Shown: piece after piece, positions 1 through 15,323 of the stretch | How the letters are laid out: the number at the start of each line of letters is the position of its first letter | Numbering within the stretch: position 1 is the first letter of the stretch | Origin: a virus | UHGV virus genome: UHGV-1270568 | DNA: 19,450 nucleotides | Direction: 5' to 3' (one strand) | Program-made: the position numbers and the translations under genes | Notes under the pieces: generated by a model | The model's input: the letters and a program-made list of their open reading frames with translations, nothing else | What the model was told of the DNA's origin: nothing | Databases searched by the model: none

Positions 1-1187
1 GAGGGCCACGGAACAGGTACACCAACGGGCAGTGCAGAGCCTTCCCCCAAACCAAGGTAATCAAGAACTCCCTGAGTGCTGGTTTTACCAAGAATGGCAC
101 GTCCAACACTTGTCAACGCGGTTAACGCGGCACGATCTGCCCCTGTAAAATATGGGAGTTTATCTGCTGATGTAGCAAGCTCCGCCAGCGCCGTCAGGGT
201 GGCATCCTTCGGTTGCTTACCCGCAAGCGCGTTAGTCATGGTGGTCGCAAAATTCGGGTCATTGCCCAGCGCCGCAGCCAGTTCGTTCAGCGTGTTCAGT
301 GCATCAGGTGACGAATCTACAAGTGCGGCAATCGCGGCCATAACGAAAGCCGTGCTTGCGATCTGGGTACTATTAGCCCCCTGTGGCGCTGTTGGTGTTG
401 TTGGCGTTCCGGTCAGTGCCGGGCTGTTTAATGGTGCTTTCTTGTTCGTTTCATCCATTACCGCCTTAACAGCTTTTGGTGTCGCTGCCAGCGTTTCAGA
501 CGTGCTGTTCGTGGCGCTACTGAGTTGAACAATCCCTTTTTGTGTAGTGGTGGCGTTCTGGGCGGTATATTTCCCGTTAGCCAGGTCATATGCAGCCTTA
601 ACCGCTTTCGGTGTTGCGGCCAGTGTTTCTGATTCACTGTTAATTGCACTGCTTAACTGAGTAAAACCTTTTACGGTCAGCGAGGCGTCCGGGTGACGTC
701 GTGATTGTTCGTGCTCTGATATTTTATCATCCACATATTTGCGGGTTGCCAGAACCACAGACGGGTCGATTTTCAGCGTGATGGCTTCGGTGTTCGTGAC
801 AACCAGAATCATGCGGATAGTCTGGGTGCGTCCACTGCCTTCCTGCAACTGCGGTTTGTACGTTTCCGGGCAGTTTGCCACCGCAATGAGTGCACCTTCA
901 TCATCATAAAGACCAATCTCACGGATCCAGAATCCTCCCTCGTTTTCAGGGATGATTTGCTCCGCAATAATCTGGCTCTGATTGTTAGGGTCAACACTCA
1001 GAAGATTCAGCGGTGCAATGCGTTTCTGGTTAATCAGTTTTGTTTGTGCAGGGTCTGGTGTTGGTAACACACCATTTGCATCACCAACGGCCATTTGCGT
1101 CAGATTCAGTTTACTGCCGAGCATCGTCGCGTTAGCCAGTCGTGCCGCGCCCTGATTAGTCAGAATAGCGTAGTATTTCACTGTCAT
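1..1187 (-). CDS. H: Tail fibre protein, N-terminal part (P2 gpH-like); gene continues beyond the window start
   Basis: Absent from the ORF track because it runs off the window. ATG at 1187..1185 overlaps the stop of the upstream gene (ATGA). My translation reads MTVKYYAILTNQGAARLANATMLGSKLNLTQMAVGDANGVLPTPDP... and stays open to position 1. Contains two copies of the ...SETLAATPKAVKA... module typical of P2-type fibre N-termini. ORFs 76..528(+) and 458..649(-) are shadows of it. Confidence 0.8.
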   Translation of the reverse strand, partial: MTVKYYAILTNQGAARLANATMLGSKLNLTQMAVGDANGVLPTPDPAQTKLINQKRIAPLNLLSVDPNNQSQIIAEQIIPENEGGFWIREIGLYDDEGALIAVANCPETYKPQLQEGSGRTQTIRMILVVTNTEAITLKIDPSVVLATRKYVDDKISEHEQSRRHPDASLTVKGFTQLSSAINSESETLAATPKAVKAAYDLANGKYTAQNATTTQKGIVQLSSATNSTSETLAATPKAVKAVMDETNKKAPLNSPALTGTPTTPTAPQGANSTQIASTAFVMAAIAALVDSSPDALNTLNELAAALGNDPNFATTMTNALAGKQPKDATLTALAELATSADKLPYFTGADRAALTALTSVGRAILGKTSTQGVLDYLGLGEGSALPVGVPVPWP

Positions 1188-1792
1188 GCGTTTACTCTCA
1201 GATTATCAATTAAATGAATGGCCGGGGCAGGGAAATAGTCCCCTTCGACAATAATGGACTCCGGGGTGTAGGGATAAACCGTCAGGGCATCGCCGTGATA
1301 GCATCCCGTACCAACGAAAATCTTTCCGTTCACACTCAGGCTGATCGCCAGCCCCGTCAGATGGCGACTTACTGGTTTTGCATCCGCAATAAGGCGCTCA
1401 AGTTCCTGATGCATTTCATCGGTGATGCCCTGATCAAGTACTCCGACAACAATGCGAAATGTTCCCGGCTCCTCGTTGAGTTGCCACCACTCCTTTACTT
1501 CAATCAGGTAGCCGAGAGGCTCCACGGCTCTTCGCAGTGCGCTGATGGTCCCTTTGTGTCGGTGTATCAGCCATGCATCACGAATCACCTGTCGCTTTGT
1601 CTCTTCCGGCCAGTTGCGATCCCAGCGGTCAACGGAAAACGCCCAGGCGAGATAAGGCAGCAGATGCACCGGGCAGGTGTCCGGCGACCACAGCGTGTTG
1701 AGGTCTACCGGAATGTCTGTAATGCGTGTTCCGACGGCTTCGGCACAACGCATGAAATTGCTGGCTGATGGTGGTAACAACGAATTACTCAT
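1184..1792 (-). CDS. I: Baseplate/tail protein I (P2 gpI-like)
   Basis: Track ORF 1184..1825; likely true start is the internal ATG at 1792 (MSNSLLPPSASNF...) with GGTGGA upstream. Motifs LWSPDTCP, LLPYLAWAFSVDRWD and RLIADAKPVSRHL match the P2 tail protein I family as I recall it. Immediately upstream of H, as in P2. Confidence 0.75.
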   Translation of the reverse strand: MSNSLLPPSASNFMRCAEAVGTRITDIPVDLNTLWSPDTCPVHLLPYLAWAFSVDRWDRNWPEETKRQVIRDAWLIHRHKGTISALRRAVEPLGYLIEVKEWWQLNEEPGTFRIVVGVLDQGITDEMHQELERLIADAKPVSRHLTGLAISLSVNGKIFVGTGCYHGDALTVYPYTPESIIVEGDYFPAPAIHLIDNLRVNA

Positions 1793-1821
1793 TGCGTCCA
1801 CCTTCGCTGATGGTGAATGAC

Positions 1822-1944
1822 TCACAGCGCGCCGCCTGTATGTCGCTGATGGCCATATTCTGTGTGGGTTCGATTATCACCATCATCGGTATCGGTGATG
1901 TCGTCCTCTGCGGGTCCGGGGTTGGTTCTGGCAACCATACTCAT
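1822..1944 (-). CDS. Possible 40-aa ORF at the M/I junction (MSMVARTNPGPAEDDITDTDDGDNRTHTEYGHQRHTGGAL); may be a junction artefact
   Basis: ATG at 1944 with AGGAG 9 nt upstream; acidic, low complexity; in-frame TGA closes the frame about 12 codons upstream of the ATG, so it is not simply the tail of a longer gene. Confidence 0.2.
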   Translation of the reverse strand: MSMVARTNPGPAEDDITDTDDGDNRTHTEYGHQRHTGGAL

Positions 1945-1956
1945 GGGGTTCACTCC

Positions 1957-2029
1957 TGAAAAAATCGGGCGGTGGGTGCGCGGTGTAAACGGTCACGGAG
2001 TCAAACCGGAACACCGCGCACGCCGCCCG
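1957..2029 (-). terminator. Terminator-like long imperfect hairpin followed by T6 on the minus strand, just downstream of M
   Basis: Minus strand reads CGGGCGGCGTGCGCGGTG ... CCGCGCACCCACCGCCCG then ATTTTTTCAGG; arms about 17 bp with a 3-nt bulge, loop about 26 nt. Confidence 0.4.
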
Positions 2030-2045
2030 CTGACGGGGTCAGTCG

Positions 2046-2846
2046 TTAACCGCGCTTTGCCTTCTGCGTCGCGGTGGTTTTTCGTGTTGCAGGCTTCCGC
2101 GTTGTCTTTTTACTTTTGCTGCTTTCGTCCTGCGCCTGCGGTGTGCTGGCATCTTCTGGTGCGGCTGTGGAATCGGCTTTTTTCAGGGCGCGGGAAAGGG
2201 TTGCAATCTCGCGTTTCACACCTGCGTTCGGGTTCAGGTGCATTGCTTCGCGTAGCAGCTTCAGTGATGAGGCCATGCTGTCCGCATCGGTCAGGCCACG
2301 GCGGGCAAAGGCGCACGCTTTGCATAATTTGGCGCGCACTTCGTCCGGCATGTCCTGGTCGGTGACAATCTCCCAAAGTGTGTCCAGTGGTTCGATAAAG
2401 GCGGACAAATCCGCGTCGGCATCCGTCCCGGCCTGCGTCAGTACCGGATTACAGATTTCTTCGGTCAGTACCGTGGCAGCAGTACGGCCAAAGTTATCCG
2501 GCATGATGAGGTTGTGATGGACCACATACGCGCCGATACGCAGCGCAAGCGGAAGATCGCCACAGTCAATCGCCCACACCATCAGCGTGGCAATCACTTC
2601 ATCCTGCTGCCCGCCGTCAGCTTCCAGCGTTCCCTCAATCCAGCCGGAAAAATCCGGCAACAACTCTTTTTTGATGGCGGCTTTCGCGCTTCTGGCCTGT
2701 ACGCCCTTAAGCCGGGCCTGTGCCAGACGCAGACGATACAGCACCTCTTCATGCGCGGTACGCGCGGCGTGGTCCACGCCTTCATTCGCCCGGCCTGCGC
2801 GCTGTGCCATCACGTTCAGCCAGTGTTGCTGTGCAGGAGTAATCAT
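2046..2846 (-). CDS. M: Terminase small (endonuclease) subunit, P2 gpM-like
   Basis: 266 aa; GGAGAG RBS 5 nt upstream of ATG 2846; motif DMPDEVRAKL and a basic K/R/T-rich C-terminal tail resemble P2 gpM; position downstream of N. Confidence 0.8.
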   Translation of the reverse strand: MITPAQQHWLNVMAQRAGRANEGVDHAARTAHEEVLYRLRLAQARLKGVQARSAKAAIKKELLPDFSGWIEGTLEADGGQQDEVIATLMVWAIDCGDLPLALRIGAYVVHHNLIMPDNFGRTAATVLTEEICNPVLTQAGTDADADLSAFIEPLDTLWEIVTDQDMPDEVRAKLCKACAFARRGLTDADSMASSLKLLREAMHLNPNAGVKREIATLSRALKKADSTAAPEDASTPQAQDESSKSKKTTRKPATRKTTATQKAKRG

Positions 2847-2891
2847 TTGTTCTCTCCGTTACAGGCGGGCATGATGCCCGCCGTGAGTTGA

Positions 2892-3944
2892 TTAGCTGTC
2901 GGCGAACTTCAGGCCAGTGACCATCGCGCACTTGCCATAGTCTTCAACGACATAAGCGTCATTGATGGACTGGTAGGTGGCGATGCGGTTGTATTCCGGC
3001 TCGTCTTTCATCAGGCGACGCATTGAACCTTTCTGCCAGTAAATCGACAGGTTGTTGAACGAGGTGATCAGCATCGTTGCATCCGGGAAGAACGGCGCAA
3101 GGAACACGCCCAGCCCGCCAATGGTGCGCGATGACAGGATGAGCTGCCCGGCAAGTAATTCCGCATTGGGATTCTGGCCGCTGATGCTGTTCAGCACGGG
3201 CAGACGCAGCGAGTTAAACAGGTTGCGCCCCATAATCACCGCGAGGTCGTCAGCTTCCTTGTGCCATTCATCCAGCAGGGATGAGCGCGCATCCTGTACC
3301 AGAGCATCGGCATTCGCATACTTACCCGCGTGCGCCACAGTGTTGTCCATGTTGCGGGAGGTCAGCGTCACGTCATTCATTACGCGCTCGCTGGCATCGG
3401 TTCTGATGTGCTCCAGCCAGCCCACGTTAACGTCCTGAAGCAGCTTGTTGGTGTGAAAATCAGACTCGTAGGCGTGGGATGTGCCGTTAAAGCCAATCAT
3501 GATGCGATCAAGCGCTACCTGCCGGGCGATCTGTGTACTGATACGGGACTGAAAATCGCTGTGGGCCGCCCAGGTATCAAGCTGTGGGTACGAAATAAAG
3601 GTATCGTAGTTCACCTGTTCGCACTGGTACTGACGAGACTTCATATCGATCACGTTATTCGGGTTACGGCGTTTGATGCCGTCATAACTGCTATTCGTGC
3701 GCGCAATTGGCCCGGTGGTGTCCAGGAGGATTTTTTCGCCTTTCTGGTCGGTCACGCCGATCACGTTAATTCTTTTCGTAAATTCGGTACTTTCCTTTGA
3801 GGCGTTTTCAAAACGCTGCTGCACCGCGGGTTCCACGGTAAATCGCGATACCAGTGCAGATACCGGGATATTGTTAAGCGACGCCTGCTGCGCCATATAG
3901 CAACCCAGCTTGTTGCGGGTAATATCTGACATCACCAGATTCAT
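2892..3944 (-). CDS. N: Major capsid protein, P2 gpN-like
   Basis: 350 aa; motifs FTVEP, GFNG, DVNVGWL, LSIYWQ and YVVEDY correspond to P2 gpN; AAGGAG RBS upstream; lies between O and M. Confidence 0.9.
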   Translation of the reverse strand: MNLVMSDITRNKLGCYMAQQASLNNIPVSALVSRFTVEPAVQQRFENASKESTEFTKRINVIGVTDQKGEKILLDTTGPIARTNSSYDGIKRRNPNNVIDMKSRQYQCEQVNYDTFISYPQLDTWAAHSDFQSRISTQIARQVALDRIMIGFNGTSHAYESDFHTNKLLQDVNVGWLEHIRTDASERVMNDVTLTSRNMDNTVAHAGKYANADALVQDARSSLLDEWHKEADDLAVIMGRNLFNSLRLPVLNSISGQNPNAELLAGQLILSSRTIGGLGVFLAPFFPDATMLITSFNNLSIYWQKGSMRRLMKDEPEYNRIATYQSINDAYVVEDYGKCAMVTGLKFADS

Positions 3945-3967
3945 AAAAAATTTGCTCCTTTGTCTTA

Positions 3968-4804
3968 TCAGAAGTCAGCCAGCTGGTCGGAGGCTGCGCC
4001 CGTTGCGGTGAAGCGGTTCTGCGGATCGCCGTCCTGCGTGCGCAGTTTTTCCTTCAATGCTGTCAGCTCTGTGGTCAGTGACGTGATTTTCTGGCGGTCC
4101 TGCTGATGGCGGGTTTCCAGCACATTAAAACGGTCGATAATGTCGGCCTGTGACGTTGCAACGCCTTCCACCGCTTCCTGAATTCGGGAGAAACTGGCGT
4201 CATCCGCTTTGCGGCCACGACCAATAATCCCCATTACGCGGTTAAACCACTGGGTGCCTTCTTCCTGGCGTTGTTCTGCCATTTCGATGATTTCAGACTC
4301 GATGGCTTCGGAGATAAGCGGTGCTTCACCCTGGATACTGTTGAACGTCATCACCGCCTGACGTTGCTGTGCCGTGAATTTCAGGCGCTCAGTGCCCAGG
4401 CTTGCCGGGGTGTCGGTCATCGCCAGCCCGACCAGATAGGCGCGCCCGTTAACGGAGAACTGCGGGTGCAGTTCGATACTGGAATAGATTTTCTTGCCGT
4501 CAGCGACAAGCTGCTTCATGCGCTCGGTCGGTTCGATTTCTGCATACAGCGCAGTACGTCCGGCCAGCGGGCCTTCCGTAATATCTTCCGTACTCAGCGC
4601 GGTGACATCGCCCATTGCGGAAAATTCGCTTGACGGGCATGGCGAGAGATAGTGCTCAACGTTCACGCGGGCAGCGTAAACATCCGGGTTGAAGTTCTCG
4701 GCGGCTTCACGCAGATGTACCTGGCTGATTTCGCGGCCATCAACAGTTGATCCGGAGACAGCCACGCGAAACTTTTTGCGGGATGTCTTTTTTTCATTAG
4801 CCAT
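3968..4804 (-). CDS. O: Capsid scaffolding protein, P2 gpO-like
   Basis: Track ORF 3968..4837; preferred start is ATG 4804 (MANEKKTSRKKFRVAVSGSTVDGREIS...) with GAGGGG RBS. KKFRVAV...DGR..IS and YLVGLAMTDTPASLGTE match gpO. Confidence 0.85.
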   Translation of the reverse strand: MANEKKTSRKKFRVAVSGSTVDGREISQVHLREAAENFNPDVYAARVNVEHYLSPCPSSEFSAMGDVTALSTEDITEGPLAGRTALYAEIEPTERMKQLVADGKKIYSSIELHPQFSVNGRAYLVGLAMTDTPASLGTERLKFTAQQRQAVMTFNSIQGEAPLISEAIESEIIEMAEQRQEEGTQWFNRVMGIIGRGRKADDASFSRIQEAVEGVATSQADIIDRFNVLETRHQQDRQKITSLTTELTALKEKLRTQDGDPQNRFTATGAASDQLADF

Positions 4805-4958
4805 AGTTTTTGCCCCTCTGACTGGTTCTTCAGTCATGATGGCAAAGCGTAACAGGCTGATACAAAGGGCTTTTGTTGTAAGAAAACGGCCAGAACAGGG
4901 GGTTAAGGAGAACGGTTTCGCGCGCGGGTAATCTTCCTGTAATTACTCAGGGGGAGCA
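4805..4958. promoter_or_regulatory. Divergent late promoter region between O (minus) and P (plus)
   Basis: 154-bp non-coding spacer between divergent structural operons, as in the P2 PO/PP region. Contains the near-palindrome ACAAAGGGCTTTTGT and TGT...ACA elements, but I cannot place a canonical Ogr-type TGT-N12-ACA site. Confidence 0.4.
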
Positions 4959-6710
4959 ATGATTCAGGACGCTTTTGTGCGCCAGCGTGCGCGGCAACTT
5001 TACTGGCAGGGTTATCCGCCCGCAGAAATATCACGTCTGATGGGAATAAACCCGAACACGATTTATGCGTGGAAAAAACGCGACCAGTGGGATGAAACGC
5101 CACCCGTGCAGCGTGTCACGCAGTCCATCGATGCGCGCCTCATCCAGCTTACTGAAAAACAGAATAAAACAGGCGGTGACTTTAAGGAAATAGACCTGCT
5201 GACCCGGCAGCTTAAAAAAATGCATGATGGCCAGCCGGATGCGACGGCCACAGGAAAGAAAGGTCGGGCGAAAAAACTCAAAAATCATTTCACGCCGGAA
5301 CAGATTGCCGCACTGCGGGAAAAAATCATCAGCAGGCTGGAGTGGCATCAGCGGGGCTGGTTTGACTCCCTGACCCTTTGCAGGGAAGCCGGGATACGTA
5401 ACAGGATGATCCTGAAATCCCGACAGATTGGCGCGACCTGGTATTTTGCACAGGAAGCACTGCTGATGGCGCTGCGTGACGATGTGGCGCAACCTTACCA
5501 GCGTAACCAGATTTTTTTGTCTGCGTCGCGTCGTCAGGCGTTCCAGTTTAAAAGCATTATTCAGAAGGCCGCGGCTGAAGTTGATGTGGAGCTGAAAGGG
5601 GGCGATAAAATCATCCTCTCCAACGGCGCAGAGCTGCATTTTCTCGGCACTTCTGCTGCGTCGGCGCAGTCCTATACGGGCAATTTTTATTTTGATGAAT
5701 TTTTCTGGGTCAGTCGCTTTGCTGAACTGCGCAAGGTGGCTGGCGCTATGGCAACCCTCAGCGGATTGCGGCGCACCTACTTCTCCACGCCATCCACCGA
5801 AACGCACGAAGCATACGCCTACTGGAACGGCGACCGCTGGAACGAGAAAAAGGCCACGCATAAACGCCAGCGTTTTTCTGTGGACTGGAAAACGCTGCAT
5901 AACGGGCTTATCTGCCCTGACCGGACGTGGCGGCAAATTGTCACGCTGGAAGATGTGGTTAATCACGGCTGGAAACACACCGATATCGACGAAATTCGTG
6001 ATGAAAACACCGAAGACGAGTTCCTCAATCTCTATATGTGTGAGTTTGTCCGCGAAGGGGAATCGGCATTTAACCTGAATATCCTGATTGGCTGCGGTGT
6101 TGACGGATACGACGACTGGAAAGACTGGAAACCTTTTGCTCCCCGCCCGATGGGGAATCGTCCGGTATGGATTGGGTATGACGCAAACGGCAGCAGTGGC
6201 AACGGCGACAGCGGCGCTGTATCCGTGGTGGTTCCTCCGGCTGTTCCTGGTGGCCGTTTTCGAACGGTGGAGACGCGACGCGTTCAGGGGCTGGAGTTTG
6301 AAGAACAGGCCAGAGTCATTGAAGAGTTCACGTGTCGCTACAACGTGGAACACATCGGCATTGATGTGACGGGCGGGAACGGGGAGGCTGTTTATCAGAT
6401 AGTGAAACGGTTTTTCCCTGCCGCTATTCCGTACACCTTCACGCTGTCATCAAAACGGTCGCTGGTACTGAAAATGCTGCAAATAATGCGTGCCGGGCGG
6501 TGGGAATACGATCGCGCCGAACGCGAGCTGGTCGCGGCCTTTAACGCCGTGCGTAAGGTGAAAACACCGGGCGGCTTTATCACTTACGAAACGGACCGTG
6601 CGAGGGGGATCAGCCACGGCGACCTTGCGTGGGCAACCATGCTTGCTGTCATTAACGAACCGATTGGCGGCGAAGGAGAAAACGAGCGTTTCACGGTTAT
6701 GGAGTTCTGA
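4959..6710 (+). CDS. P: Terminase large (ATPase) subunit, P2 gpP-like
   Basis: 583 aa; GGGGAG RBS; N-terminal RQLYWQGY...ISRLMGINPNTIYAWKKRDQWDE resembles the gpP N-terminus; stop overlaps the Q start (TGATG). Confidence 0.9.
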   Translation: MIQDAFVRQRARQLYWQGYPPAEISRLMGINPNTIYAWKKRDQWDETPPVQRVTQSIDARLIQLTEKQNKTGGDFKEIDLLTRQLKKMHDGQPDATATGKKGRAKKLKNHFTPEQIAALREKIISRLEWHQRGWFDSLTLCREAGIRNRMILKSRQIGATWYFAQEALLMALRDDVAQPYQRNQIFLSASRRQAFQFKSIIQKAAAEVDVELKGGDKIILSNGAELHFLGTSAASAQSYTGNFYFDEFFWVSRFAELRKVAGAMATLSGLRRTYFSTPSTETHEAYAYWNGDRWNEKKATHKRQRFSVDWKTLHNGLICPDRTWRQIVTLEDVVNHGWKHTDIDEIRDENTEDEFLNLYMCEFVREGESAFNLNILIGCGVDGYDDWKDWKPFAPRPMGNRPVWIGYDANGSSGNGDSGAVSVVVPPAVPGGRFRTVETRRVQGLEFEEQARVIEEFTCRYNVEHIGIDVTGGNGEAVYQIVKRFFPAAIPYTFTLSSKRSLVLKMLQIMRAGRWEYDRAERELVAAFNAVRKVKTPGGFITYETDRARGISHGDLAWATMLAVINEPIGGEGENERFTVMEF

Positions 6711-7756
6711 TGAGCAGAAAAAATAAAAAAGTGCGCATGAGTTCACGCATTGATCTCGCTGATGCGCTCAGGAAAGAATCATCGCTCAGTGCATTCACAT
6801 TTGATGGTCCTTATCGCCTGACCGGGCATGACCTGCTGGACAATATGTACTGTGCTGATAACGGGCGGTGGTATGAAACCCCGGTGGACTGGTACGGTCT
6901 GGCAAGAGCTGCCCGGCAAACGTCCTGGCATCAGTCTGCGCTTTACTTTAAGCGCAATGTATTACTCGGTTGCTACATCCCGCACCCGTTGCTTTCCCGG
7001 CAGGATTTCTCGGCGCTGGCGCTGGACTGGTTTGTGTTCGGTAACGCATTCCTTGAGCTTCGAAGCAATATGCTCGGCGAACCGCTTAAATTACGGCACG
7101 CCCTGGCGAAATACATGCGACGCGGAAGCGATCTTGAATCATGGTGGTATGTGCAGGATGGCAAGGACGCGTTTCAGTTTCGCCCTGGCAAAGTGTGCCA
7201 CCTGATGAATCCTGACATTAACCAGGAAATCTACGGCATGCCGGAATATCTCGGCGCATTACTCTCGGCCAGCCTGTCTCATTCGGCGGACATGTTCAGA
7301 AAACTGTATTACGACAATGGATCCCACGCCGGGTGCATCATCTACATCGGTGCAGCGCAGGTAAACCGCGAAAGCATGGACTCCCTGAAAGAAACGCTAC
7401 AGGGGGCACGTGGTGGTGGTGCGTTTAAAAACGTGCTCATTCATGCGCCTAACGGGGGCAAAGAGGGGGTGCAAATTTTGCCGTTCCAGCAGATCACCGC
7501 AAAGGATGAGTTCATGAATGTTAAGGCGGCATCCCGTGATGATGTGCTGGCTGCGCACCGCGTTCCGCCGCAACTGATGGGGGCGATGCCGGGCGAAAAA
7601 AGTGCGTTTGGTGATGTGGAGAAGGCCGCGCGGGTTTACGCAATTAACGAGCTGATGCCCGTCATGGAGGCCATGAAGCACATCAATGACTGGCTTGGCG
7701 AAGAGGTGATCCGCTTTAACCCTTACGCACTGTTAGACACCCTGCCCACATCCTGA
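6710..7756 (+). CDS. Q: Portal (capsid vertex) protein, P2 gpQ-like
   Basis: 348 aa; translationally coupled to P; same size and position as P2 gpQ, last gene before the cos region. Confidence 0.85.
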   Translation: MSRKNKKVRMSSRIDLADALRKESSLSAFTFDGPYRLTGHDLLDNMYCADNGRWYETPVDWYGLARAARQTSWHQSALYFKRNVLLGCYIPHPLLSRQDFSALALDWFVFGNAFLELRSNMLGEPLKLRHALAKYMRRGSDLESWWYVQDGKDAFQFRPGKVCHLMNPDINQEIYGMPEYLGALLSASLSHSADMFRKLYYDNGSHAGCIIYIGAAQVNRESMDSLKETLQGARGGGAFKNVLIHAPNGGKEGVQILPFQQITAKDEFMNVKAASRDDVLAAHRVPPQLMGAMPGEKSAFGDVEKAARVYAINELMPVMEAMKHINDWLGEEVIRFNPYALLDTLPTS

Positions 7757-7782
7757 CGCGCTTCGCTTGTCTGCTGCTTCGC

Positions 7783-7807
7783 CGGGGCATAAAAAATTTA
7801 TGCCCCG
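7783..7807. other. Perfect 11-bp stem, 3-nt loop hairpin (CGGGGCATAAA aaa TTTATGCCCCG) 27 bp after the Q stop
   Basis: Read directly from the sequence; no U-tract on either strand, so it may be a Rho-independent-like structure without a tail or a packaging recognition element. Confidence 0.5.
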
Positions 7808-7843
7808 ACTCTCCAGCTCCTGTATCAGTCAGATAATTTCACG

Positions 7844-7863
7844 ATGCTTTCCTGCTGATTGCC
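7844..7863. other. Candidate cos cohesive-end site
   Basis: ATGCTTTCCTGCTGATTGCC. The first 8-9 nt match the complement of the P2/186 cohesive-end sequence as I remember it (GTGCTTTCCCCGCCTCGCC), and the distance from the Q stop (about 90 bp) matches P2 geometry. The rest diverges. Confidence 0.3.
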
Positions 7864-8085
7864 ATCATCGACAGTCAGACTCTTACACAATCCCACCGCG
7901 TTGACTGCATGTTCTCGCCGCCTCAGTGCGATTTTGACGGCCTTATCTTCCACTCCATCAAATCAAAAGCCCTCACGTCGTTTTCACGCTCAGCGTGAGA
8001 AATACAGCCATTCTGTTGTGTCGCTGCGACATCGTTCAGGGGATGCTATTTACCCCCTGAAACGCGGGCTGTTCCCCCGTCACCT

Positions 8086-8110
8086 GCGCGCAGAAAAAGC
8101 GCGTTTTTTT
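8086..8110 (+). terminator. Plus-strand Rho-independent terminator candidate
   Basis: Short GC stem (CGCGC / GCGCG, loop AGAAAAA) followed by TTTTTTT. Confidence 0.4.
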
Positions 8111-8180
8111 GTGCACGCACGGATCCTTGACGGATCCAGCCGCCATGCGGGCCGGAAGGGTAAAAAGTCGTTCAAAAAAA

Positions 8181-8208
8181 TTGTGCAAATTTGTGCACTT
8201 TTGTGCAA
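8181..8208. repeat. Three direct repeats TTGTGCA(A/C) at exact 10-bp spacing (8181, 8191, 8201); a fourth copy at 8109..8116
   Basis: Read directly; helical-phase periodicity suggests a protein-binding array in the cos-proximal region. Confidence 0.6.
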
Positions 8209-8233
8209 ACAAAAAGCGCCCCTGAGGCGCTTT
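8201..8233 (-). terminator. Minus-strand Rho-independent terminator closing the A / cargo operon
   Basis: 8-bp stem AAAGCGCC / GGCGCTTT with loop CCTGA at 8213..8233; on the minus strand it is followed by TTTTGTTTG. Confidence 0.55.
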
Positions 8234-8267
8234 AGTGTTTTATAGGTTGTGTATATTTGCTGGGTCC

Positions 8268-8531
8268 TTATCCTGCTGTGCTTTCAACTGATGAGGGGAA
8301 CAAAATCTTTTCATCAAACCCTGCATTCATATCATGGACAGCAACACACCAATCCATTGACGAACGATTATCAAGAGCCTCCATGATTTCATCCATGCGG
8401 CGTAGGTCATACAGGTAAATGCTTTTATCGCCAATGGTGTAAAAACCAATTTTTTTCGGTGATGGACAGCGATCAAGAACGTCCTGTAATTCGTTCAACC
8501 ATGCCCGTTCTTTTTTTGTCAAAGTTGCCAT
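8268..8531 (-). CDS. Hypothetical 87-aa protein, third gene of the cargo cassette
   Basis: MATLTKKERAWLNELQDVLDRCPSPKKIGFYTIGDK...; AAGGAGAG RBS lies inside the 17-bp linker repeat; single-nucleotide gap to the upstream stop. No family recognised. Confidence 0.6.
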   Translation of the reverse strand: MATLTKKERAWLNELQDVLDRCPSPKKIGFYTIGDKSIYLYDLRRMDEIMEALDNRSSMDWCVAVHDMNAGFDEKILFPSSVESTAG

Positions 8532-8532
8532 A

Positions 8533-9024
8533 TCACTCTCCTTTGATGCGAATACCAGTGGTACTCATTATCCTGATTTCCCAGAGCACACGAGGAACAC
8601 CACCGTTTCCGACTGGATCGCGTTTACTCCGCAGGGCGACGCTTGATTCCGCCCAGCTTTTTCTTGGAGGAAGCGCTTTCACACGAACAAAACCAGCTGC
8701 GCGAAGAGATGCTCCTGATTCATCTGCCCGGGTGTACGTAATACAACGTTGATAACCCATAGCTTTTGCTGCCCGCCAGACAGCACCATAAAGCGCGCTG
8801 TTAGCGTTGCGTTCTCCTGTGGTACATGTGCGATTTACTTCAAGCGTTAATCCATCATCCAAATGTCGTGCAACAGGTCGACCGGCTGTCGCCACACCTA
8901 TCAATTCTCCGGCATCATTTCTCAGACCAATGCTGAATTTATGCCCCACCGGGGGTTTATTGTGTCGGTGATGTCTGGATATAAACGCCTTCGCAACACG
9001 AAGAGTAACCGGTGAAATTTGCAT
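8533..9024 (-). CDS. Hypothetical 163-aa protein, possibly GNAT-like fold; second gene of the cargo cassette
   Basis: Track ORF 8533..9063; preferred start is ATG 9024 (MQISPVTLRV...) with AAGGAGAG RBS. The segment ...NANSALYGAVWRAAKAMGY... and the C-terminal ...SGASLRAAGFVRV... loosely resemble GNAT motifs; this assignment is weak. Ends ...IRIKGE encoded by the linker repeat. Confidence 0.55.
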   Translation of the reverse strand: MQISPVTLRVAKAFISRHHRHNKPPVGHKFSIGLRNDAGELIGVATAGRPVARHLDDGLTLEVNRTCTTGERNANSALYGAVWRAAKAMGYQRCITYTRADESGASLRAAGFVRVKALPPRKSWAESSVALRSKRDPVGNGGVPRVLWEIRIMSTTGIRIKGE

Positions 9025-9026
9025 TC

Positions 9027-9602
9027 TCACTCTCCTTTGATGCCAATGTTTACAGACTGGCAAGCCTCTTTGAGCACCCAGTCAACAGCGTCTTTCCATG
9101 CTCCGGTTTCGACTGGCGGATTCTCACGCTTTACCTGTTCATAGAAACGCACCGCTCTAACCAGTCCATCTGACGGTTTTGCCTGTAGTGCAGCCTGAGC
9201 TATGCGGTATGCCTGGAGCATACGGGCGTCGTTGGCTTTTTTGCGGTTGATGTTGGCTATGTCCGGCTGTGCGTTTGTGTCGAAATACTCGCTCAGTGGC
9301 AGGGTGACAACCACATCCACCTCCTGTGGCGTGATGCCTGATTTGACCAGCGCGTGATGAATGGCAATGACATTCACATCGCTGTACTGGTATTGCGTGT
9401 CAGTCGTCTGGACAAAGCGATCGCTGACCGGATCAAAACCATAGCGCACGCCATCAAGCATGTAGTTCGCGGGCTGCGTGCCACCGAACGGCGCAGACCA
9501 TTCCGACTTGAAGCTGTTCGGGCTGATGGCGTTGCGGCGTTCGCCGTTCTCAGTCCATGCCAGCTTGGTGTTGGTGGAGCCGTCATCGATACAAATTTTC
9601 AT
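9027..9602 (-). CDS. Chimeric protein: N-terminal 120-odd aa ParM/StbA-like (actin-fold ATPase N-terminus) fused to an unrelated 68-aa C-terminus
   Basis: MKICIDDGSTNTKLAW...ISPNSFK.EW...YSDVNV.A.HHAL..SG....EVD.V.T.PL......N.QP...NI.RKKAN tracks the N-terminus of plasmid R1 ParM as I remember it (phosphate-1 motif DDGSTN), then diverges. No ParM C-terminal half in any frame. AAGGAA RBS. Ends ...NIGIKGE from the linker repeat. Confidence 0.6.
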   Translation of the reverse strand: MKICIDDGSTNTKLAWTENGERRNAISPNSFKSEWSAPFGGTQPANYMLDGVRYGFDPVSDRFVQTTDTQYQYSDVNVIAIHHALVKSGITPQEVDVVVTLPLSEYFDTNAQPDIANINRKKANDARMLQAYRIAQAALQAKPSDGLVRAVRFYEQVKRENPPVETGAWKDAVDWVLKEACQSVNIGIKGE

Positions 9603-9636
9603 GTCGCTTTTCCTTATGTTGATTAATTAATCGTTT

Positions 9637-9656
9637 ACGGGATTCTGAAATCCCGT
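9637..9656. repeat. Palindrome ACGGGAT-N6-ATCCCGT, copy 1, between the A stop and the first cargo gene
   Basis: ACGGGATTCTGAAATCCCGT followed on the plus strand by TTTTGCC. Confidence 0.6.
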
Positions 9657-9678
9657 TTTTGCCTGTTTTATGCGCGCT

Positions 9679-12501
9679 TCATATATCGCGGCGCGTTTTT
9701 TGCTCATTTACGGGATTTGTGAATCCCGTTTCTGTCTGTTTTTTGTTTCCACTGGTCAGGCCACCCCGCAGCAGGTCTGCTTTGCGGCGGGCGCGTTCAG
9801 TGGTTTCACTGATTCTCTGTGCGTGCTCTGCGTCGCGGATGGCGCGCAGCATGTCAGAAAGCACGGTAACGGGTGTTTTCATGGTGTTCTGGTCTTGCTG
9901 AAGTGTGGATGCCAGGCGTGCGGCGGCTTCGGGGTCTGATGCCCTCAGCTGTTCCAGATAGCTGGCGACCGGGTTATGGCGGATCTCCGTACTGCTTACG
10001 CCGTGGTTACGGCTCAGGCGCTGCCAGAGCTGCGTGATCCGGCTGTCCGGTCGGGTATCCGGTTTGCGTACAATTTCAAATCCCTGCGGTGCAATGATGC
10101 TGCCGTCAACGTACAGACTGCCGCCCCGTAACAGGTGCTGCATCTGCTGTTCACCGATATGCAGGCCGAGAGATTCGGCAGATTCCCGCCATTCTTTAGC
10201 GAGTAATTCGTGGTTATCAGGCAAAGGCCGCTGCTGTTTGCGGCTCTGTGTCCAGCTCTGCATTTCATCACTGCTGTTTTTTGCCTGTTTGTCACGAAGC
10301 GAACGCATCAGCGCCCGGCGTTCGTGCCGTTTCAGTGAGCGCATCCATTCGTTCACGTCAACGCCGTCAGGAAGCTGCGGCCACGGTGCTGGCCGTTCTT
10401 CCGGCTGTTCTGTCCCGTTGTTGTCCGTTTCCTGTACACGGGGACAGTTATTGCCACGAGTCCAAGGGGCGGCAGGGCCGCCCTGAAGGTCAAAACCATT
10501 TTCGCGGGCGCTGTCTTCCGTTTCCGGTTTACGTCTTACCAGTTTCCAGTTATCCGGATGCGTGCACACACGGGAGGATTCCCCGATGAGTGGTGACCAG
10601 ATCCCGTAAATCTGTACGCTCTGTTCGCCGTAATCATTCAGCTCATCTGCGAGGTCGTAGGCGGTGCGAATCAGGTAGTCTTTGCGTGGAACAAGTACGC
10701 CGCCCTGTTTTTCAATGTAGGTGGCAAAACACCCGGCATCGGCGGCAGCGAGTACCGCATCCATTGCGTCATCTTTCAGTCGTTGCGGGCCTTCCGGGTT
10801 GCGTGCCATCTGGCTGGCAAGGCGGCGCAGTTCACGCCACACCTGACGGGAGGGGATGCCAAAGAACTGGAACTGGCGGACCCGATGAAGGCGCGCCCAG
10901 CCGATGGCGCGCTCCACACTCTCGGCCATTGATTTTCCGGTTTCGTGGTCAACGCGTGGCTTGCCCGTTTTCGGGTCGATGCCATCCACGGCGCGGCTGT
11001 CCAGGTTCTTTCCGATGTAGGTCGCGATATAGCTGGTTGGTGTGCCTTTTGAGCCGTCGACATACTCCGCCTTAAAGCGCGGAGTAATATCATTGCCCAG
11101 CTCGTGGCGGTCTTCCTGAATGGCAATATCGCGGGTGATGGCCACGATGCTGTCGATTTCTTCCGGATGAGCAAAGACCATCATATGCCAGTGCACGGTG
11201 CCGTCATGGTGAGGCTCCACCGTGCGGATGCCATACCAGCGAAGACCGTCGCGGTTCAGTTTTTTGCGGACCGCCGCAAAAAACGTGTTAACCAGGTAAT
11301 CGCTGGAGTCGCGCATGGTGGCCCCGTTCCATTTGGGATTCGGATGACCGTTCTCTGTTGTGGCGTGGTATTTTGACGGGCAGGTGACAGTCAGAAACAC
11401 CGCTTTGTCGCCACGGGCTTCGGCCAGAAGTTCCAGCCCCTTCATGGTGGCCATCATTTCTGCCTTACGGTGAACCGGGTTACTTACTCCCGCGTAATAC
11501 ACTGTCTCGAGATCAATCGTGAACCCGTCTTCGTTTTCCAGCATGAAACTTTTCAGGAAATCGCGTGTTTTCTCGCGCTGTGCGCGAAACTCGCTTAACG
11601 CGTCCTGGCTCAGATAGGGTGATGTTTTTCTGGAAACCAGACAGGCGGCGCGGAGTTGTTCTTCTCTCCACTCGCAACGTAACAGCCACAGTTTGCGTTT
11701 CCACCATTCCGCACAGGTCAGGCGAAGGACTGCGCCCGGCAGCAGCTCCGTGTCCGGTTCGTTCCTCCGGTCTTTATCTGTTGTCAGTGCGTCATAATGT
11801 GGAGGCATGATGTGCAGGTGTAACGCCATGCGGGCCAGCATCTGATACGCCTTCAGCGTTACATCCATGGTCAGCTCGCCATCTCTGGCACCAAAGCCAT
11901 CACAGAGTTTTTCGAAGGTGCTGCTGAACATCGCCGCCGTCATGGTGGCCAGCGACTGTATCTGGTGTTTGTTGAGCTGCGGCAGGTAAAGCAAATCGTC
12001 CAGGCGTTCGCGTCCGGCAAGGGAGCGATAACCCGGTGTCAGCCAGTGTCCGTCAGTGCGATCCAGACGTTCGAATATTTTGCGCAGGGTTCCGCGTGCA
12101 TAGCGTTCCGCCTGCCAGCTCTTTTTGCCTTTCCGGCGATCGGCTTCCTGTTTTTTGCGCAGGAAGGAGAGGTGGCGAATAAGCGGATCGCGCAGATAGG
12201 ACGGCAGCAGGCGCAGCGAGGCCATGGCTTCATCCACCGCGCCACGTGCCTGTTTTCTGGCTTCTCTGGCCAGTGTGATGGTTTTGTCCTGTTTTTCCTG
12301 TGCGTCCAGGCTTTTATTAATCAGGTTGCCCAGCGGCGTGGCGGAGAACGCCGCATCAGCCATTTCCTGGCGGCGCTCGTTCTCTGCCCGGTAGGCATCC
12401 AGCCAGGAGGAAAGCTCGGATTCAGGAGCGGGGATTCCCGTTCCTTCACGACCCACTGCGTGGCGCGGTTGTTGCCAGTCCCTGATGTACTCTGCCGTCA
12501 T
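9679..12501 (-). CDS. A: Rolling-circle replication initiation endonuclease, P2 gpA-like
   Basis: 940 aa; HUH-type motif TVHWHMMVFA (about residue 437) and paired-tyrosine motif TSYIATYIGK (Y491/Y495), matching the P2 gpA active site arrangement as I recall it; sits downstream of the early operon. Confidence 0.85.
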   Translation of the reverse strand: MTAEYIRDWQQPRHAVGREGTGIPAPESELSSWLDAYRAENERRQEMADAAFSATPLGNLINKSLDAQEKQDKTITLAREARKQARGAVDEAMASLRLLPSYLRDPLIRHLSFLRKKQEADRRKGKKSWQAERYARGTLRKIFERLDRTDGHWLTPGYRSLAGRERLDDLLYLPQLNKHQIQSLATMTAAMFSSTFEKLCDGFGARDGELTMDVTLKAYQMLARMALHLHIMPPHYDALTTDKDRRNEPDTELLPGAVLRLTCAEWWKRKLWLLRCEWREEQLRAACLVSRKTSPYLSQDALSEFRAQREKTRDFLKSFMLENEDGFTIDLETVYYAGVSNPVHRKAEMMATMKGLELLAEARGDKAVFLTVTCPSKYHATTENGHPNPKWNGATMRDSSDYLVNTFFAAVRKKLNRDGLRWYGIRTVEPHHDGTVHWHMMVFAHPEEIDSIVAITRDIAIQEDRHELGNDITPRFKAEYVDGSKGTPTSYIATYIGKNLDSRAVDGIDPKTGKPRVDHETGKSMAESVERAIGWARLHRVRQFQFFGIPSRQVWRELRRLASQMARNPEGPQRLKDDAMDAVLAAADAGCFATYIEKQGGVLVPRKDYLIRTAYDLADELNDYGEQSVQIYGIWSPLIGESSRVCTHPDNWKLVRRKPETEDSARENGFDLQGGPAAPWTRGNNCPRVQETDNNGTEQPEERPAPWPQLPDGVDVNEWMRSLKRHERRALMRSLRDKQAKNSSDEMQSWTQSRKQQRPLPDNHELLAKEWRESAESLGLHIGEQQMQHLLRGGSLYVDGSIIAPQGFEIVRKPDTRPDSRITQLWQRLSRNHGVSSTEIRHNPVASYLEQLRASDPEAAARLASTLQQDQNTMKTPVTVLSDMLRAIRDAEHAQRISETTERARRKADLLRGGLTSGNKKQTETGFTNPVNEQKTRRDI
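9710..9729. repeat. Palindrome ACGGGAT-N6-ATCCCGT, copy 2, inside the last about 15 codons of A
   Basis: ACGGGATTTGTGAATCCCGT, followed on the plus strand by a T-rich run; a third GC hairpin plus T6 lies between the two copies (9672..9701). Confidence 0.6.
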
Positions 12502-12507
12502 AGTGAT

Positions 12508-12873
12508 TTACTTCGTCATGCCATTCAGGGTGTCGCGGCAGACTGTAGCCAGCCGCTGAATTTCCAGCACGGTGTCTTCTGTGTCGGCATGGCGATGTGT
12601 GATGCGGATGCTGTCGGCAATCACATCGACGATTGCAGAGGATGGGCGCTGGTAAATGCCAATAACGGACGGGGTGCCACCTTCAATGCGGTAAAGCCTG
12701 TAATTTTCCTCATGGCTGTCAATCATGTAGCGACCATCAATAACAATCTTTCCGTCAGCGAGCTGCGGTACAGGCAGGGATTTCAGGTACATGTCATAAC
12801 GATCACGCACGCGAGCGGCAAGATCACGTTCTGTGTTGAGCAGGTATTCAAGAAAGTCGTTGGCGAGAATCAT
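12508..12873 (-). CDS. Hypothetical 121-aa early protein immediately upstream of A
   Basis: Strong AAGAGGA RBS 8 nt before ATG 12873; stop 6 nt before the A start; no family recognised. Confidence 0.6.
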   Translation of the reverse strand: MILANDFLEYLLNTERDLAARVRDRYDMYLKSLPVPQLADGKIVIDGRYMIDSHEENYRLYRIEGGTPSVIGIYQRPSSAIVDVIADSIRITHRHADTEDTVLEIQRLATVCRDTLNGMTK

Positions 12874-12945
12874 TGCGGCAATCCTCTTGCTACAGATGTG
12901 CGAAGGCCTCCCGCCGCAAGGTGCAGGAAAGGCCTGGAACAGGAA

Positions 12946-13176
12946 TTAATGGAGTTTGTTTTGCTGCTGGATGAGCTGCTGAAGCTCGCGCAGATCATCC
13001 GCCAGATAGCTGAAAACAGAGGCGGAATAAATGTTTGATAGTGCGTGGCTGCGCTCATGCAGCATATTGATGTGCATGATTTGCGCGACGCGTGATGCGC
13101 GGAAAAGTCTGCGGTTGATTTCAGTCTGGATGTGACGACGCTCCGCGATAGCGCGGTGCTGTTTGCGGTTTGCCAT
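12946..13176 (-). CDS. Hypothetical 76-aa basic protein
   Basis: MANRKQHRAIAERRHIQTEINRRLF...; GAGAGG RBS; first gene after the 13177..13543 non-coding stretch. Confidence 0.5.
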   Translation of the reverse strand: MANRKQHRAIAERRHIQTEINRRLFRASRVAQIMHINMLHERSHALSNIYSASVFSYLADDLRELQQLIQQQNKLH

Positions 13177-13233
13177 GATGTGGCCTCTCTGTTAGTTAGT
13201 TTTGAAAACTCACCATCCAGAGGTTCCAAGCTC

Positions 13234-13314
13234 GGGGTGGTGAGACGTACAGGGTTGGAACTACCGGCTAACAGAGGACCCGGCCCAGCTGATGCTGGCC
13301 CTGTACGCCCCACC
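13234..13314. other. Highly structured non-coding element in the leader of the 76-aa / 121-aa / A unit
   Basis: Plus-strand CGTACAGGG (13246..13254) pairs with CCCTGTACG (13299..13307), extended by GGTGG/CCACC, enclosing an inner hairpin CCAGC-TGAT-GCTGG (13285..13298). Confidence 0.4.
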
Positions 13315-13353
13315 ATAATTCTGACGCGAAAAAGACGTGGCGATACGGCACGC

Positions 13354-13376
13354 ACAAAAAAACCGCTGGCGCGGTT
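13354..13376 (-). terminator. Minus-strand Rho-independent terminator
   Basis: Minus strand AACCGC-GCCA-GCGGTT followed by TTTTTTTG. Confidence 0.55.
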
Positions 13377-13512
13377 GTGCGCTCTGTTAGTCTGCGGGGT
13401 TCCAATCCCGGCACCCGTTTTATGAGGTGCAGCGGAAATGTAACCTGACTGATTGCGGCATGGCAAGCGGTTTTTTTGTGAGAACGGCATACTAAAAAAT
13501 CCTGATACTGCT

Positions 13513-13537
13513 CCGGCCAGCGGTTTTCACTGGCCGG
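13513..13537 (-). terminator. 8-bp GC-rich hairpin 3 nt after the SPFH gene stop
   Basis: CCGGCCAG / CTGGCCGG stem with 9-nt loop; the T-run on the minus strand is 12 nt distal, so efficiency is uncertain. Confidence 0.4.
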
Positions 13538-13543
13538 GTTTAA

Positions 13544-14574: not shown

Positions 14575-14584
14575 GTTGCGGCCC

Positions 14585-15123: not shown

Positions 15124-15323
15124 CTGCATGACTCCTGTACCTGTCGGATAAGGTTCACCCGCACCACGTTGGTGGCGCAGAAGTAAGTGCCGTCAGTGAG
15201 GTAGATGTGGTGTGCATCCTTTTCTGAACGGTGTTTGTCGATTGTGGTAATCAGGCGTTCGTCGACTTCGTATTCACGTCCTCTGGAGGTAAAACGAACG
15301 ACAGGAAAGTGCTTAATTGCCAT
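15120..15323 (-). CDS. Hypothetical 67-aa early protein
   Basis: Track ORF 15120..15383 overlaps the upstream gene; internal ATG 15323 (MAIKHFPVVRF...) is the likely start. Start is uncertain. Confidence 0.35.
   Translation of the reverse strand: MAIKHFPVVRFTSRGREYEVDERLITTIDKHRSEKDAHHIYLTDGTYFCATNVVRVNLIRQVQESCR

Follow-up and report, generated by a model that had tools for sequence, protein, structure and literature searches.

The stretch of DNA analysed here (the window) comprises 19,450 nucleotides of the virus genome UHGV-1270568, a contig from a short-read human-gut metagenome. Judged by its gene content, it covers the greater part of a P88/P2-like (Peduoviridae) prophage, which in its closest relatives lies next to btuC in E. 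coli. The genes for head completion, lysis and tail completion that separate M from I in P2-like phages are lost. We consider it highly probable (about 0.9) that this loss is one clean internal deletion of 6.6 kb reaching from L into J, and that the element is a real but ordinary defective prophage.

A single gap between L and J

M (2046..2846, minus strand) and I (1184..1792, minus strand) are separated by only 253 bp (1793..2045), as expected from the original prediction, in which M was followed directly by I at a distance of about 250 bp. Both genes are intact: M encodes a terminase small subunit of 266 aa (PF05944) identical to WP_001402975.1, and I encodes a tail/baseplate protein of 202 aa (PF09684, Tail_P2_I, E = 1.3e-52), which is the protein WP_001403408.1 of E. 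coli PO06021. The order M-L-X-holin-endolysin-LysB/C-(cargo)-R-S-V-W-J-I was found in P2 and in every close intact relative examined, in line with the block that had been predicted to be missing. In the window, the complete set needed for a viable phage is absent between M and I, where L, X, the lysis genes, R, S, V, W and J are all missing as whole genes.

As an intact reference, we used the prophage of E. coli PO06021 (NZ_CM129868.1, 2247827..2274832; L003), which adjoins btuC. It has the same genes in the same order and is 99.8-99.96 % identical in DNA sequence over all 19.4 kb, with about six substitutions in 15.9 kb. Window positions 1..1882 align to 9983..11864 of L003, and positions 1875..17773 align to 18462..34360. 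The offset between these two alignments is 6,605 bp, a single gap whose ends lie inside J (11767..12663 in L003) and L (18037..18531), which bears out the predicted loss of several kb. The extra 6,605 bp of L003 carry most of L, X, the holin, an M15 endolysin, LysB/LysC, a NanS-p-like esterase, R, S, V, W and most of J, as annotated or Pfam-typed in L003 and L007-L010. All the genes named in the original prediction are therefore lost, and so is a cargo gene beyond that list, the esterase gene of 626 aa (DUF1737/SASA/DUF6645). The block is missing as genes but not wholly: 66 nt of L and 94 nt of J are still there.

Alignment to a complete relative, which had been proposed for locating the breakpoints, resolved both of them. 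In an alignment of three sequences, the window and the J and L sides of L003, the junction falls on TATC at 1875..1878. Both breakpoints of the intact relative carry this TATC and are identical at seven of eight positions over TATCnCCA; no further similarity was found between them, and no word of at least 7 letters is shared within 60 bp on either side. By our own calculation, a microhomology of at least 4 bp has a chance of about 0.016. The J remnant, the last 94 nt of the gene (1785..1878, minus strand), ends in the normal overlap of J with the start of I, and the L remnant consists of the ATG at 1944 and the first 22 codons (66 nt, 1879..1944, minus strand). The predicted ORF of 40 aa is present at 1822..1944 (minus strand) and turned out to be an out-of-frame fusion of the two remnants, with L codons 1-23 followed by 17 out-of-frame J codons. 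Given this composition, the ORF arose with the deletion and marks the deletion allele uniquely.

A single illegitimate recombination between two directly oriented TATC copies 6,605 bp apart would account for the loss, which begins at codon 23 of L and stops 94 nt short of the end of J; this recombination probably took place by RecA-independent replication slippage or microhomology-mediated joining. The tail-fibre DNA invertase was rejected as the agent of a site-specific recombination, because the breakpoints have no repeat in common.

Other relatives match the two sides of the junction separately. The closest phages are P88-like, with 95-98 % identity from position 1875 rightwards and homology beginning inside the head-completion gene, and on the I/J side numerous E. 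coli prophages match the window as far as position 1882. P88-like prophages and phages (Xuanwuvirus-type; P88, P884B11, vB_EcoM-705R2) have the same genes, the same order and the same hairpin in the M-L spacer, but they keep the 6,605-bp L-to-J segment. P2 (NC_001895), which is complete, has its operon layout and the order Q-P / O-N-M-L-X-Y-K-lysA-lysB-R-S-(orf30)-V-W-J-I-H-G in common with the lineage of the window. Its I and H are 86-88 % identical to those of the window, whereas its head genes are too diverged for megablast. Unlike the P88-like relatives, P2 has a lysozyme-type K and orf30 and lacks the M15 endolysin and the esterase cargo. The F-E-T-U block of the phage group is inverted relative to P2.

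On the tail side, the window reaches as far as H, of which it contains the 5' part of 395 codons (1..1187, minus strand; PF12571 and PF03406); this tail-fibre gene continues past the left end of the window and is 99.8 % identical to H of L003, with two amino acids differing. Positions 1..58 correspond to a repeat that lies at the invertible tail-fibre segment in L003. On the other side of the junction, the capsid and packaging block (2892..7756, both strands) is kept, with N (2892..3944) and O (3968..4804) on the minus strand and P (4959..6710) and Q (6710..7756) on the plus strand. Each of these four genes is intact, has a Pfam match, differs by 0 or 1 aa from its PO06021 counterpart and is free of internal stops. 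Together with M, they form the P2-type divergent Q-P / O-N-M cluster in P2 order (PF04860, PF03237/PF17289/PF06056, PF05929, PF05125 and PF05944), encoding the P2-family portal, terminase, scaffold, capsid and small terminase. The window also encodes a gpA-type rolling-circle replication endonuclease of 940 aa (PF05840) and, as assigned by collinearity with L003, a C-type repressor with an HTH (17102..17410) and an integrase (17460..18468) that is broken by 34 N. A satellite of the P4-like or phage-inducible island type, which would have no capsid and packaging genes of its own but a primase/helicase and genes for manipulating the helper or the capsid size, was rejected, since the full P2-type set of Q, P, O, N and M is kept together with gpA and the window is collinear with an ordinary P2-like prophage. 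All 24 retained genes compared with PO06021 are without stops and have at most three amino-acid changes each, indicating that the deletion is recent.

Recurrence of the junction in other assemblies

The exact 40-aa fusion protein is encoded on four contigs, and a close variant from the same 90 %-identity cluster on one more, giving five contigs in total. We retrieved three of them, ENA ERZ926747 (with a k127_ name), Logan SRR33540650 and ENA ERZ19289622 (with a NODE_ name), which come from different samples as judged by their accession numbers and from different assemblers as judged by the contig names. The ERZ926747 contig matches the window with 100 % identity. Two sister contigs (L005 and L006) have the same junction at 100 % identity and a second deletion of 11,289 bp, found only there. 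Its left breakpoint is TAC at 3297..3299 and its right breakpoint TAC at 14586..14588, at the stop codon of an early ORF of 98 aa (14585..14881, minus strand), so that window positions 3300..14588 are gone. This sub-lineage is thus without Q, P, O, gpA and half of N. With the junction present under three sample accessions and a further deletion in two of the three retrieved contigs, the allele is, as far as these contigs can be read, heritable, and the lineage decays stepwise.

The allele is nevertheless rare. The exact 40-nt junction had no match in 185,579 GTDB representative genomes, IMG/VR and the JGI metagenomes, and a search of 5,426 complete E. coli genomes did not find it either. The only complete-genome record covering the junction query, EC9682, was rejected as a case of the same deletion, since it carries a tandem duplication with an I'|M' junction.

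The original prediction had left room for a misassembly or a rearrangement in place of a deletion. In an assembly chimera, M and the start of L would have been wrongly joined to the end of J and I, and the true prophage would be intact. The source of the contig, a short-read metagenome, would make such an error conceivable, as would the abundance of P2-like prophages, of which an E. coli genome often contains several (at a median of two places per genome). However, the TATC shared by the breakpoints, with no longer word in common, is far too short for a misjoin in a k-mer graph; a chimera should join at a repeat of at least the assembler's k-mer length and be unique to one assembly. Here the junction recurs with 100 % identity in contigs of other samples with differing naming styles (k127_, Logan, NODE_), two of which carry the additional private deletion expected of a heritable allele. 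We therefore regard a chimera as very improbable.

A rearrangement that moved the L-to-J block elsewhere, leaving it functional and the phage inducible, appears just as improbable. Large rearrangements are known in the group, such as the EC9682 duplication and the F-E-T-U inversion, and only 19.5 kb of the genome are visible, with the host genome beyond them outside the window. Nevertheless, 22 codons from the start of L and 31 from the end of J are still in place, and a relocated block would accordingly have truncated L and J. The search for the missing genes elsewhere, another check that had been proposed, gave no copy or part of the block in the 19.5-kb window by blastn with the L003 block as the query. 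Moreover, the sister contigs lose more genes and show no restoration. The single internal deletion thus remains the preferred explanation.

Consequences for the prophage and its persistence

The retained and the lost genes together suggest what the prophage could still do. It could repress itself with the intact C-type repressor, replicate with the intact gpA, and produce proheads and terminase from Q, P, O, N and M. Head completion would be lost with L, the finishing of baseplate and tail with X, R, S, V, W and J, and host lysis with the holin, endolysin and spanins. A prophage lacking these functions would therefore be locked in as defective, consistent with the predicted defect in lysis and tail assembly, which here follows from gene content. 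Any promoter between L and J is also gone, and we propose that I and H could consequently be transcribed only by read-through from O-N-M past the spacer hairpin. A scan for Ogr/B-type late promoters (TGT-N12-ACA), aimed at a pV-like promoter that might have been deleted, missed the motif even in the O/P intergenic region.

Loss of the lysis cassette would remove the cost of induction, and this would explain why the allele persisted until the second deletion occurred in the sub-lineage. Alternatively, the deleted element might be maintained by selection, either as a domesticated module (through immunity, an SPFH protein, other cargo or the capsid genes) or as a helper-dependent mini-P2. In the latter case, a co-resident intact P2-like phage would supply L to J and the lysis functions in trans, leading to packaging and release. 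The intactness of all retained genes, the presence of the cos-proximal packaging genes, gpA and repressor, the frequent co-occurrence of P2-like prophages in a single E. coli genome and the finding of the allele in several samples are all compatible with such maintenance. On the other hand, about six substitutions in 15.9 kb correspond to too little time for gene intactness to indicate selection, the sub-lineage without Q, P, O, gpA and half of N argues against selection for capsid or replication genes, and no helper is visible. Maintenance is perhaps a little less improbable than a chimera or a relocated block, but it is still highly unlikely, and simple inactivation by deletion, with ongoing decay, accounts better for these observations.

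Comparable losses are found in other prophages. In L045 (IMGVR_UViG_2571042390_000006), M is also directly followed by I, with the stop codon of M joined to codon 77 of I; unlike the window, L045 lacks the hairpin and carries another deletion, P'-N'. In L011 (E. coli CP059723.1), an internal deletion leaves ogr-D-FI-FII-E beside C-int. Because the breakpoints differ, these two deletions are independent of the event in the window. L045, in which the same block was lost independently, is in keeping with the expectation that the surviving deletions are those that take out the lysis cassette. Further deletion derivatives of P2-like prophages are the P2 remnants in E. coli K-12 and B. In such derivatives, as in the window, the lysis and tail modules are gone and the flanking phage genes are kept. 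Defective or "grounded" prophages are known to be inactivated by deletion, to decay stepwise and possibly to retain useful cargo (PMC2669165, PMC6379469). The window does not differ from them in kind and adds base-pair-resolved breakpoints and a two-step series. As textbook prophage inactivation, the deletion has little import of its own, but it is useful as a case cleanly resolved across metagenomes, and it cautions annotators that P2 head and tail-fibre genes on a contig do not necessarily represent a viable phage.

A conserved hairpin in the M-L spacer

The terminator-like hairpin that had been predicted between M and I is present and followed by six U residues, but the deletion did not give rise to it: the hairpin belongs natively to the M-L spacer (1959..2029, minus strand), where it is conserved. 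On the minus strand, the stop codon of M (2048..2046) is followed by the stem-loop (2029..1966), the U6 tract (1964..1959), AGGAG (1957..1953) and the ATG of L (1944). The hairpin is GC-rich and 64 nt long, with a folding energy of -50.1 kcal/mol for the folded 106 nt (z = -5.4). It is identical in the intact L003, and its architecture is common to P2, 186, PSP3 and phiCTX. Among 79 IMG/VR relatives, 77 have the M-L spacer directly after M with the hairpin conserved. Its outer stem is invariant (GGCGG/CCGCC) and its inner stem covaries freely; the 5' side has a C bulge and the 3' side a (C/U)CA bulge.

Compensatory, two-sided changes occur in 14 of the 19 pairs among 25 distinct sequences. The covariation score is 0.538, compared with 0.164 in shuffles (0/500) and at most 0.155 in slid registers, and 93 % of the cells are paired, compared with 71 % in shuffles. 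By these compensatory changes across diverged relatives, the M-L spacer hairpin is a conserved structured RNA element. A loose DNA pattern for the hairpin gave 120 matches in IMG/VR, only 46 of which were flanked by M or L homologues; the remaining matches look like chance, and the pattern was not used for estimating breadth. A simple terminator scanner missed the hairpin, whose inner loop exceeds 8 nt.

No Rfam family matched the hairpin at the gathering threshold, and the E-value mode gave only miRNA-like noise far below it. The curated records of P2 and 186 have no feature at the hairpin, and a literature search, whose reach did not extend to the 1990s papers on the P2 and 186 sequences, found no published description. 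We tentatively suggest that the hairpin may be a functional and undescribed cis-regulatory RNA of the Peduoviridae late operon, conserved from E. coli P2/186/P88-like phages to Pseudomonas phiCTX, although this is rather doubtful. Candidate roles would be an RNase III-type processing site, a 3'-stabiliser site or an attenuator; by uncoupling the genes on its two sides, the hairpin could let O-N-M be expressed at a high level and L-X-lysis-R-S at a low one. If functional and undescribed, it would provide a testable handle on unequal expression levels within one P2-like late operon. The conserved hairpin is the one mildly novel by-product of this analysis, and the deletion itself is not new.

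The natural class for comparison consists of intrinsic terminators and the RNase III-type processing hairpins of phage polycistronic mRNAs, for example the sites in the T7 early region. Like these, the M-L hairpin lies between genes inside an operon and is long, GC-rich and interrupted by internal bulges. A U-tract directly follows its GC-rich stem in the window, as in a terminator. Unlike in terminators, however, the U-tract is not kept wherever the hairpin is kept, being missing in 186, PSP3, phiCTX and the L102-L113 clade, and essential genes lie downstream in the same operon.

Anatomy of the M-I junction

ORF listing and Pfam scans of the window identified a P2-type late region in the reverse reading direction, with the tail-fibre gene H' (1..1187), I (1184..1792), M (2046..2846), N (2892..3944) and O (3968..4804) on the minus strand and P (4959..6710) and Q (6710..7756) on the plus strand. 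Beyond Q follow cargo genes, the gpA replication endonuclease gene (9679..12501, minus strand), early genes, a C-type repressor and an integrase. The nearest sequenced phages are P88-like Peduoviridae, namely vB_EcoM-705R2 (97.9 %) and P88 and P884B11 (~95 %). The original prediction that I follows M directly, at about 250 bp with a hairpin and a 40-aa ORF, was confirmed: 253 bp lie between the M stop codon (2046..2048) and the I ATG (1792), including a strong hairpin and a 40-aa ORF. According to the P2 record, the genes from M to I are L, X, Y, K, lysA, lysB/lysC, R, S, orf30, V, W and J, and P88-like relatives keep this order with the addition of an M15 endolysin gene and a 626-aa DUF1737/SASA/DUF6645 cargo gene with likeness to NanS-p esterases. 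None of these P2 and P88-like genes was found in the window, in agreement with the predicted absence of the L-X-lysis-R-S-V-W-J block.

Megablast against phages placed the start of P88-like homology at 1875, within the head-completion gene, and the match of the I/J side to complete E. coli genomes extended to 1882. E. coli PO06021 (NZ_CM129868.1), which carries an intact, near-identical prophage locus (L003), matched the entire window at 99.9 %, spread over 27,006 bp of that record. Pairwise blastn against L003 resulted in two collinear pieces, 1..1882 to L003 9983..11864 (99.79 %) and 1875..17773 to L003 18462..34360 (99.96 %), the offsets of which differ by 6,605 bp. The deletion of several kb that had been proposed is thus a single 6,605-bp gap relative to this complete relative, with the breakpoints inside L and J. 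A three-way alignment located the crossover in TATC (1875..1878), which is present at both breakpoints, where TATCnCCA is identical at 7 of 8 positions; similarity beyond TATC was not found within ±60 bp of the breakpoints. The calculated chance of at least 4 bp of microhomology at a random junction is ~0.016. One microhomology-mediated deletion created the defective prophage, removing most of L, the complete X, holin, M15 endolysin, LysB (DUF2570) and LysC genes, the esterase-like cargo gene, R, S, V and W, and most of J. Of L, the initial 22 codons remain (ATG 1944 down to 1879, minus strand), and of J the final 94 nt (1878..1785, minus strand); they are joined out of frame into the 40-aa ORF (1944..1822), which reads MSMVARTNPGPAEDDITDTDDGD followed by 17 missense residues.

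A recurrent junction in a decaying lineage

The alternatives raised with the original prediction, a rearrangement or a misassembly, were not borne out. A misassembly would have wrongly joined M and the L remnant to the J remnant and I. A k-mer assembler cannot be misled by a 4-bp overlap, and the exact 40-aa chimeric protein is recorded on four contigs, with a fifth contig yielding the second member of its 90 %-identity cluster. The three junction contigs retrieved, from ERZ926747 (k127_), Logan SRR33540650 and ERZ19289622 (NODE_), represent three sample accessions and three contig-naming styles, and the junction is 100 % identical in all of them, which argues that it is not an assembly chimera. 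Had a functional L-J block instead been relocated elsewhere in the genome, the moved copy would have truncated L and J, because the ends of both genes were left in place; a relocated functional block is therefore excluded. The Logan and NODE contigs additionally lack a further 11,289 bp (window 3300..14588), bounded by TAC trinucleotides at 3297..3299, inside N, and 14586..14588, where a 98-aa early ORF has its stop codon. This second deletion removes O, P, Q and gpA together with the N 5' part, the cos side, cargo genes and several of the early genes. A common first deletion with a private second one looks like the pattern of a heritable allele in a decaying lineage. The junction allele is rare, with no occurrence in 5,426 complete E. 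coli genomes, GTDB representative genomes, IMG/VR or JGI metagenomes.

Contig k127_34650 (ENA ERZ926747, run ERR1398114, project PRJEB13870) matches the window at 100 % identity, with contig position 54 corresponding to window position 1; the project is cited by a hypertension cohort study on the human gut (PMC5286796). L003 has two further matches to the left end of the window (1..58), a direct one at 9001..9054 and an inverted one at 7489..7546. These repeats are probably the crossover repeats of an invertible tail-fibre segment, which would explain the contig end at this edge.

Module loss recurs among relatives, as expected if lysis-gene deletions are tolerated or favoured, for which PMC2669165 and PMC6379469 offer comparison. 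We gathered 79 IMG/VR relatives by an M-protein profile, 77 of which have a normal M-L spacer. In one exception, L045 (IMGVR_UViG_2571042390_000006, 2290..2310), the M stop codon immediately adjoins codon 77 of an I gene that is divergent, with a loss of ~7.1 kb on L003 coordinates covering the hairpin and L through J; a second deletion joins the remnants of P and N (locus ~740). We read L045 as an independent defective relative. The other, L091 (IMGVR_UViG_2597489865_000010, ~2130..2180), has lost the hairpin's 5' half along with the M 3' tail, so that M reads into the leftover 3' hairpin arm; it is the sole one of the 79 with a broken hairpin and L present. A prophage remnant in E. coli CP059723.1 (L011) shares the btuC-side attachment site and shows a large deletion distinct from these. 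In its region 1280..10800, ogr, D, FI, FII and E are kept and the repressor-integrase module follows ~2.2 kb on, with no gene called between.

Other rearrangements were observed in related loci. E. coli EC9682 (L002, NZ_CP095271.1, 6598..18873) shows an apparent ~5.9-kb tandem duplication of the L-to-J region, with a novel junction of a frameshifted I against a 5'-truncated M, which could be real or an assembly artefact. In L003 (1..9500), and also in L002 and L011, the FI-FII-E-T-U tail block is opposite in strand to H/I/J and D, unlike in P2, and it adjoins invertible tail-fibre segments and a DNA invertase; this orientation may be native to the phage group or may stem from a large inversion. 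In L009 (GCA_030934435.1, contig ABLSCG010000029.1, 1..9000), a Mu-like early region with transposase, MuB-like ATPase, Gam, GemA and Mor genes adjoins the Ash/gpA genes of a P2-like prophage, probably as an insertion in the early region.

The conserved hairpin of the M-L spacer

The hairpin was not made by the deletion, because intact relatives have the identical one. It is a predicted long GC-rich stem-loop (2029..1966, minus strand) in a 106-nt spacer folding at -50.1 kcal/mol (z = -5.4), followed in order by U6, AGGAG and the ATG of L. A hairpin of the same architecture occupies the same spacer in P2 (NC_001895 5922..5981), 186, PSP3 and Pseudomonas phiCTX. The outer stem of 6 bp, GGCGG/CCGCC in enterobacterial phages and different at one pair in phiCTX, and the bulges are nearly invariant across Peduoviridae (P2, 186, PSP3, phiCTX and the IMG/VR loci L035-L113). 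The 5' side has a one-base bulge common to P2, 186, PSP3, phiCTX and the phage of the window, the three-base bulge on the 3' side is (C/U)CA in enterobacterial phages and ACC in the phiCTX fold, and the inner stem of 7-13 bp varies in sequence from phage to phage. From 25 distinct spacers aligned with one another, RNAalifold predicted 19 pairs, 14 of them with compensatory double changes. Paired cells amounted to 93.1 % versus 71.1 % in shuffles (0/500), and the covariation score was 0.538, as opposed to 0.164 for shuffles and no more than 0.155 for slid registers.

The U-tract is clade-limited, being U6-7 in P88-like phages and U4 in P2, and none was found after the hairpin in 186, PSP3, phiCTX and the L102-L113 group. 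Because of this limitation, and because essential genes follow the hairpin within its operon, it is unlikely to be a simple full terminator, and our best guess is an attenuator or a processing/stabiliser hairpin. An Rfam search of the hairpin matched no family, the terminators annotated in the curated records of P2 and 186 lie elsewhere, the M-L spacer bearing no annotation there, and we found no description of it in the searchable literature, the reach of which ends short of the 1990s sequencing papers.

Consequences for the prophage

None of the 24 retained genes that were compared with their PO06021 counterparts has an internal stop, and each differs by three amino acids or fewer; the deletion is therefore recent. 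By the P2 paradigm, immunity, replication, and prohead and terminase production should remain possible. The head-completion adaptor L, the tail proteins X/R/S, the baseplate proteins V/W/J and the whole lysis cassette are missing as judged from gene content, and by the same paradigm the prophage would therefore yield neither infectious particles nor host lysis. The gene loss thus supports the anticipated defect in lysis and tail assembly. In P2, pV upstream of V drives I-H-G (P2 record). Its equivalent, whatever its form, presumably lay in the deleted block, so that I and H would now rely on transcripts reading through from the O operon. Scanning for late promoters with a simple motif located none in the phage of the window. 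A Shine-Dalgarno-like sequence belonging to I itself, AAGGTGGA, precedes the I ATG by 6 nt.

The element is a P2-like prophage without a complete late gene set. A satellite identity was rejected, as the full P2 head genes and gpA are kept. The original interpretation is supported, and the finding is real but ordinary; modest added interest lies only in the two-step decay series, resolved to the base pair, and in the conservation of the spacer hairpin.

Further features were noted outside the late region. The integrase gene contains a run of 34 N (17774..17807) where PO06021 and L005, one of the two contigs with the second deletion, have only CAC. If the mask keeps length, a 31-nt insertion in the source contig would cause an integrase frameshift, a second inactivating lesion; the run was probably added later, because a plain short-read contig, as the source appears to be, is normally without N. 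The ParM/StbA-like cargo gene (9027..9602, minus strand) encodes 191 aa, versus 319 aa in the related loci L012 and L014, where a stability-protein gene follows it; the shorter gene points to cargo decay or turnover in a Q-to-A hotspot. Rfam matches above the gathering score for C4 antisense RNA (78.5 bits, 13233..13320) and isrK (72.4 bits, 13356..13430), both on the minus strand, overlap the 5' part of a 206-aa Ash-like ORF (12870..13490), which suggests that this P2-like prophage has a putative antirepressor module under antisense control, similar to ImmI of P1.
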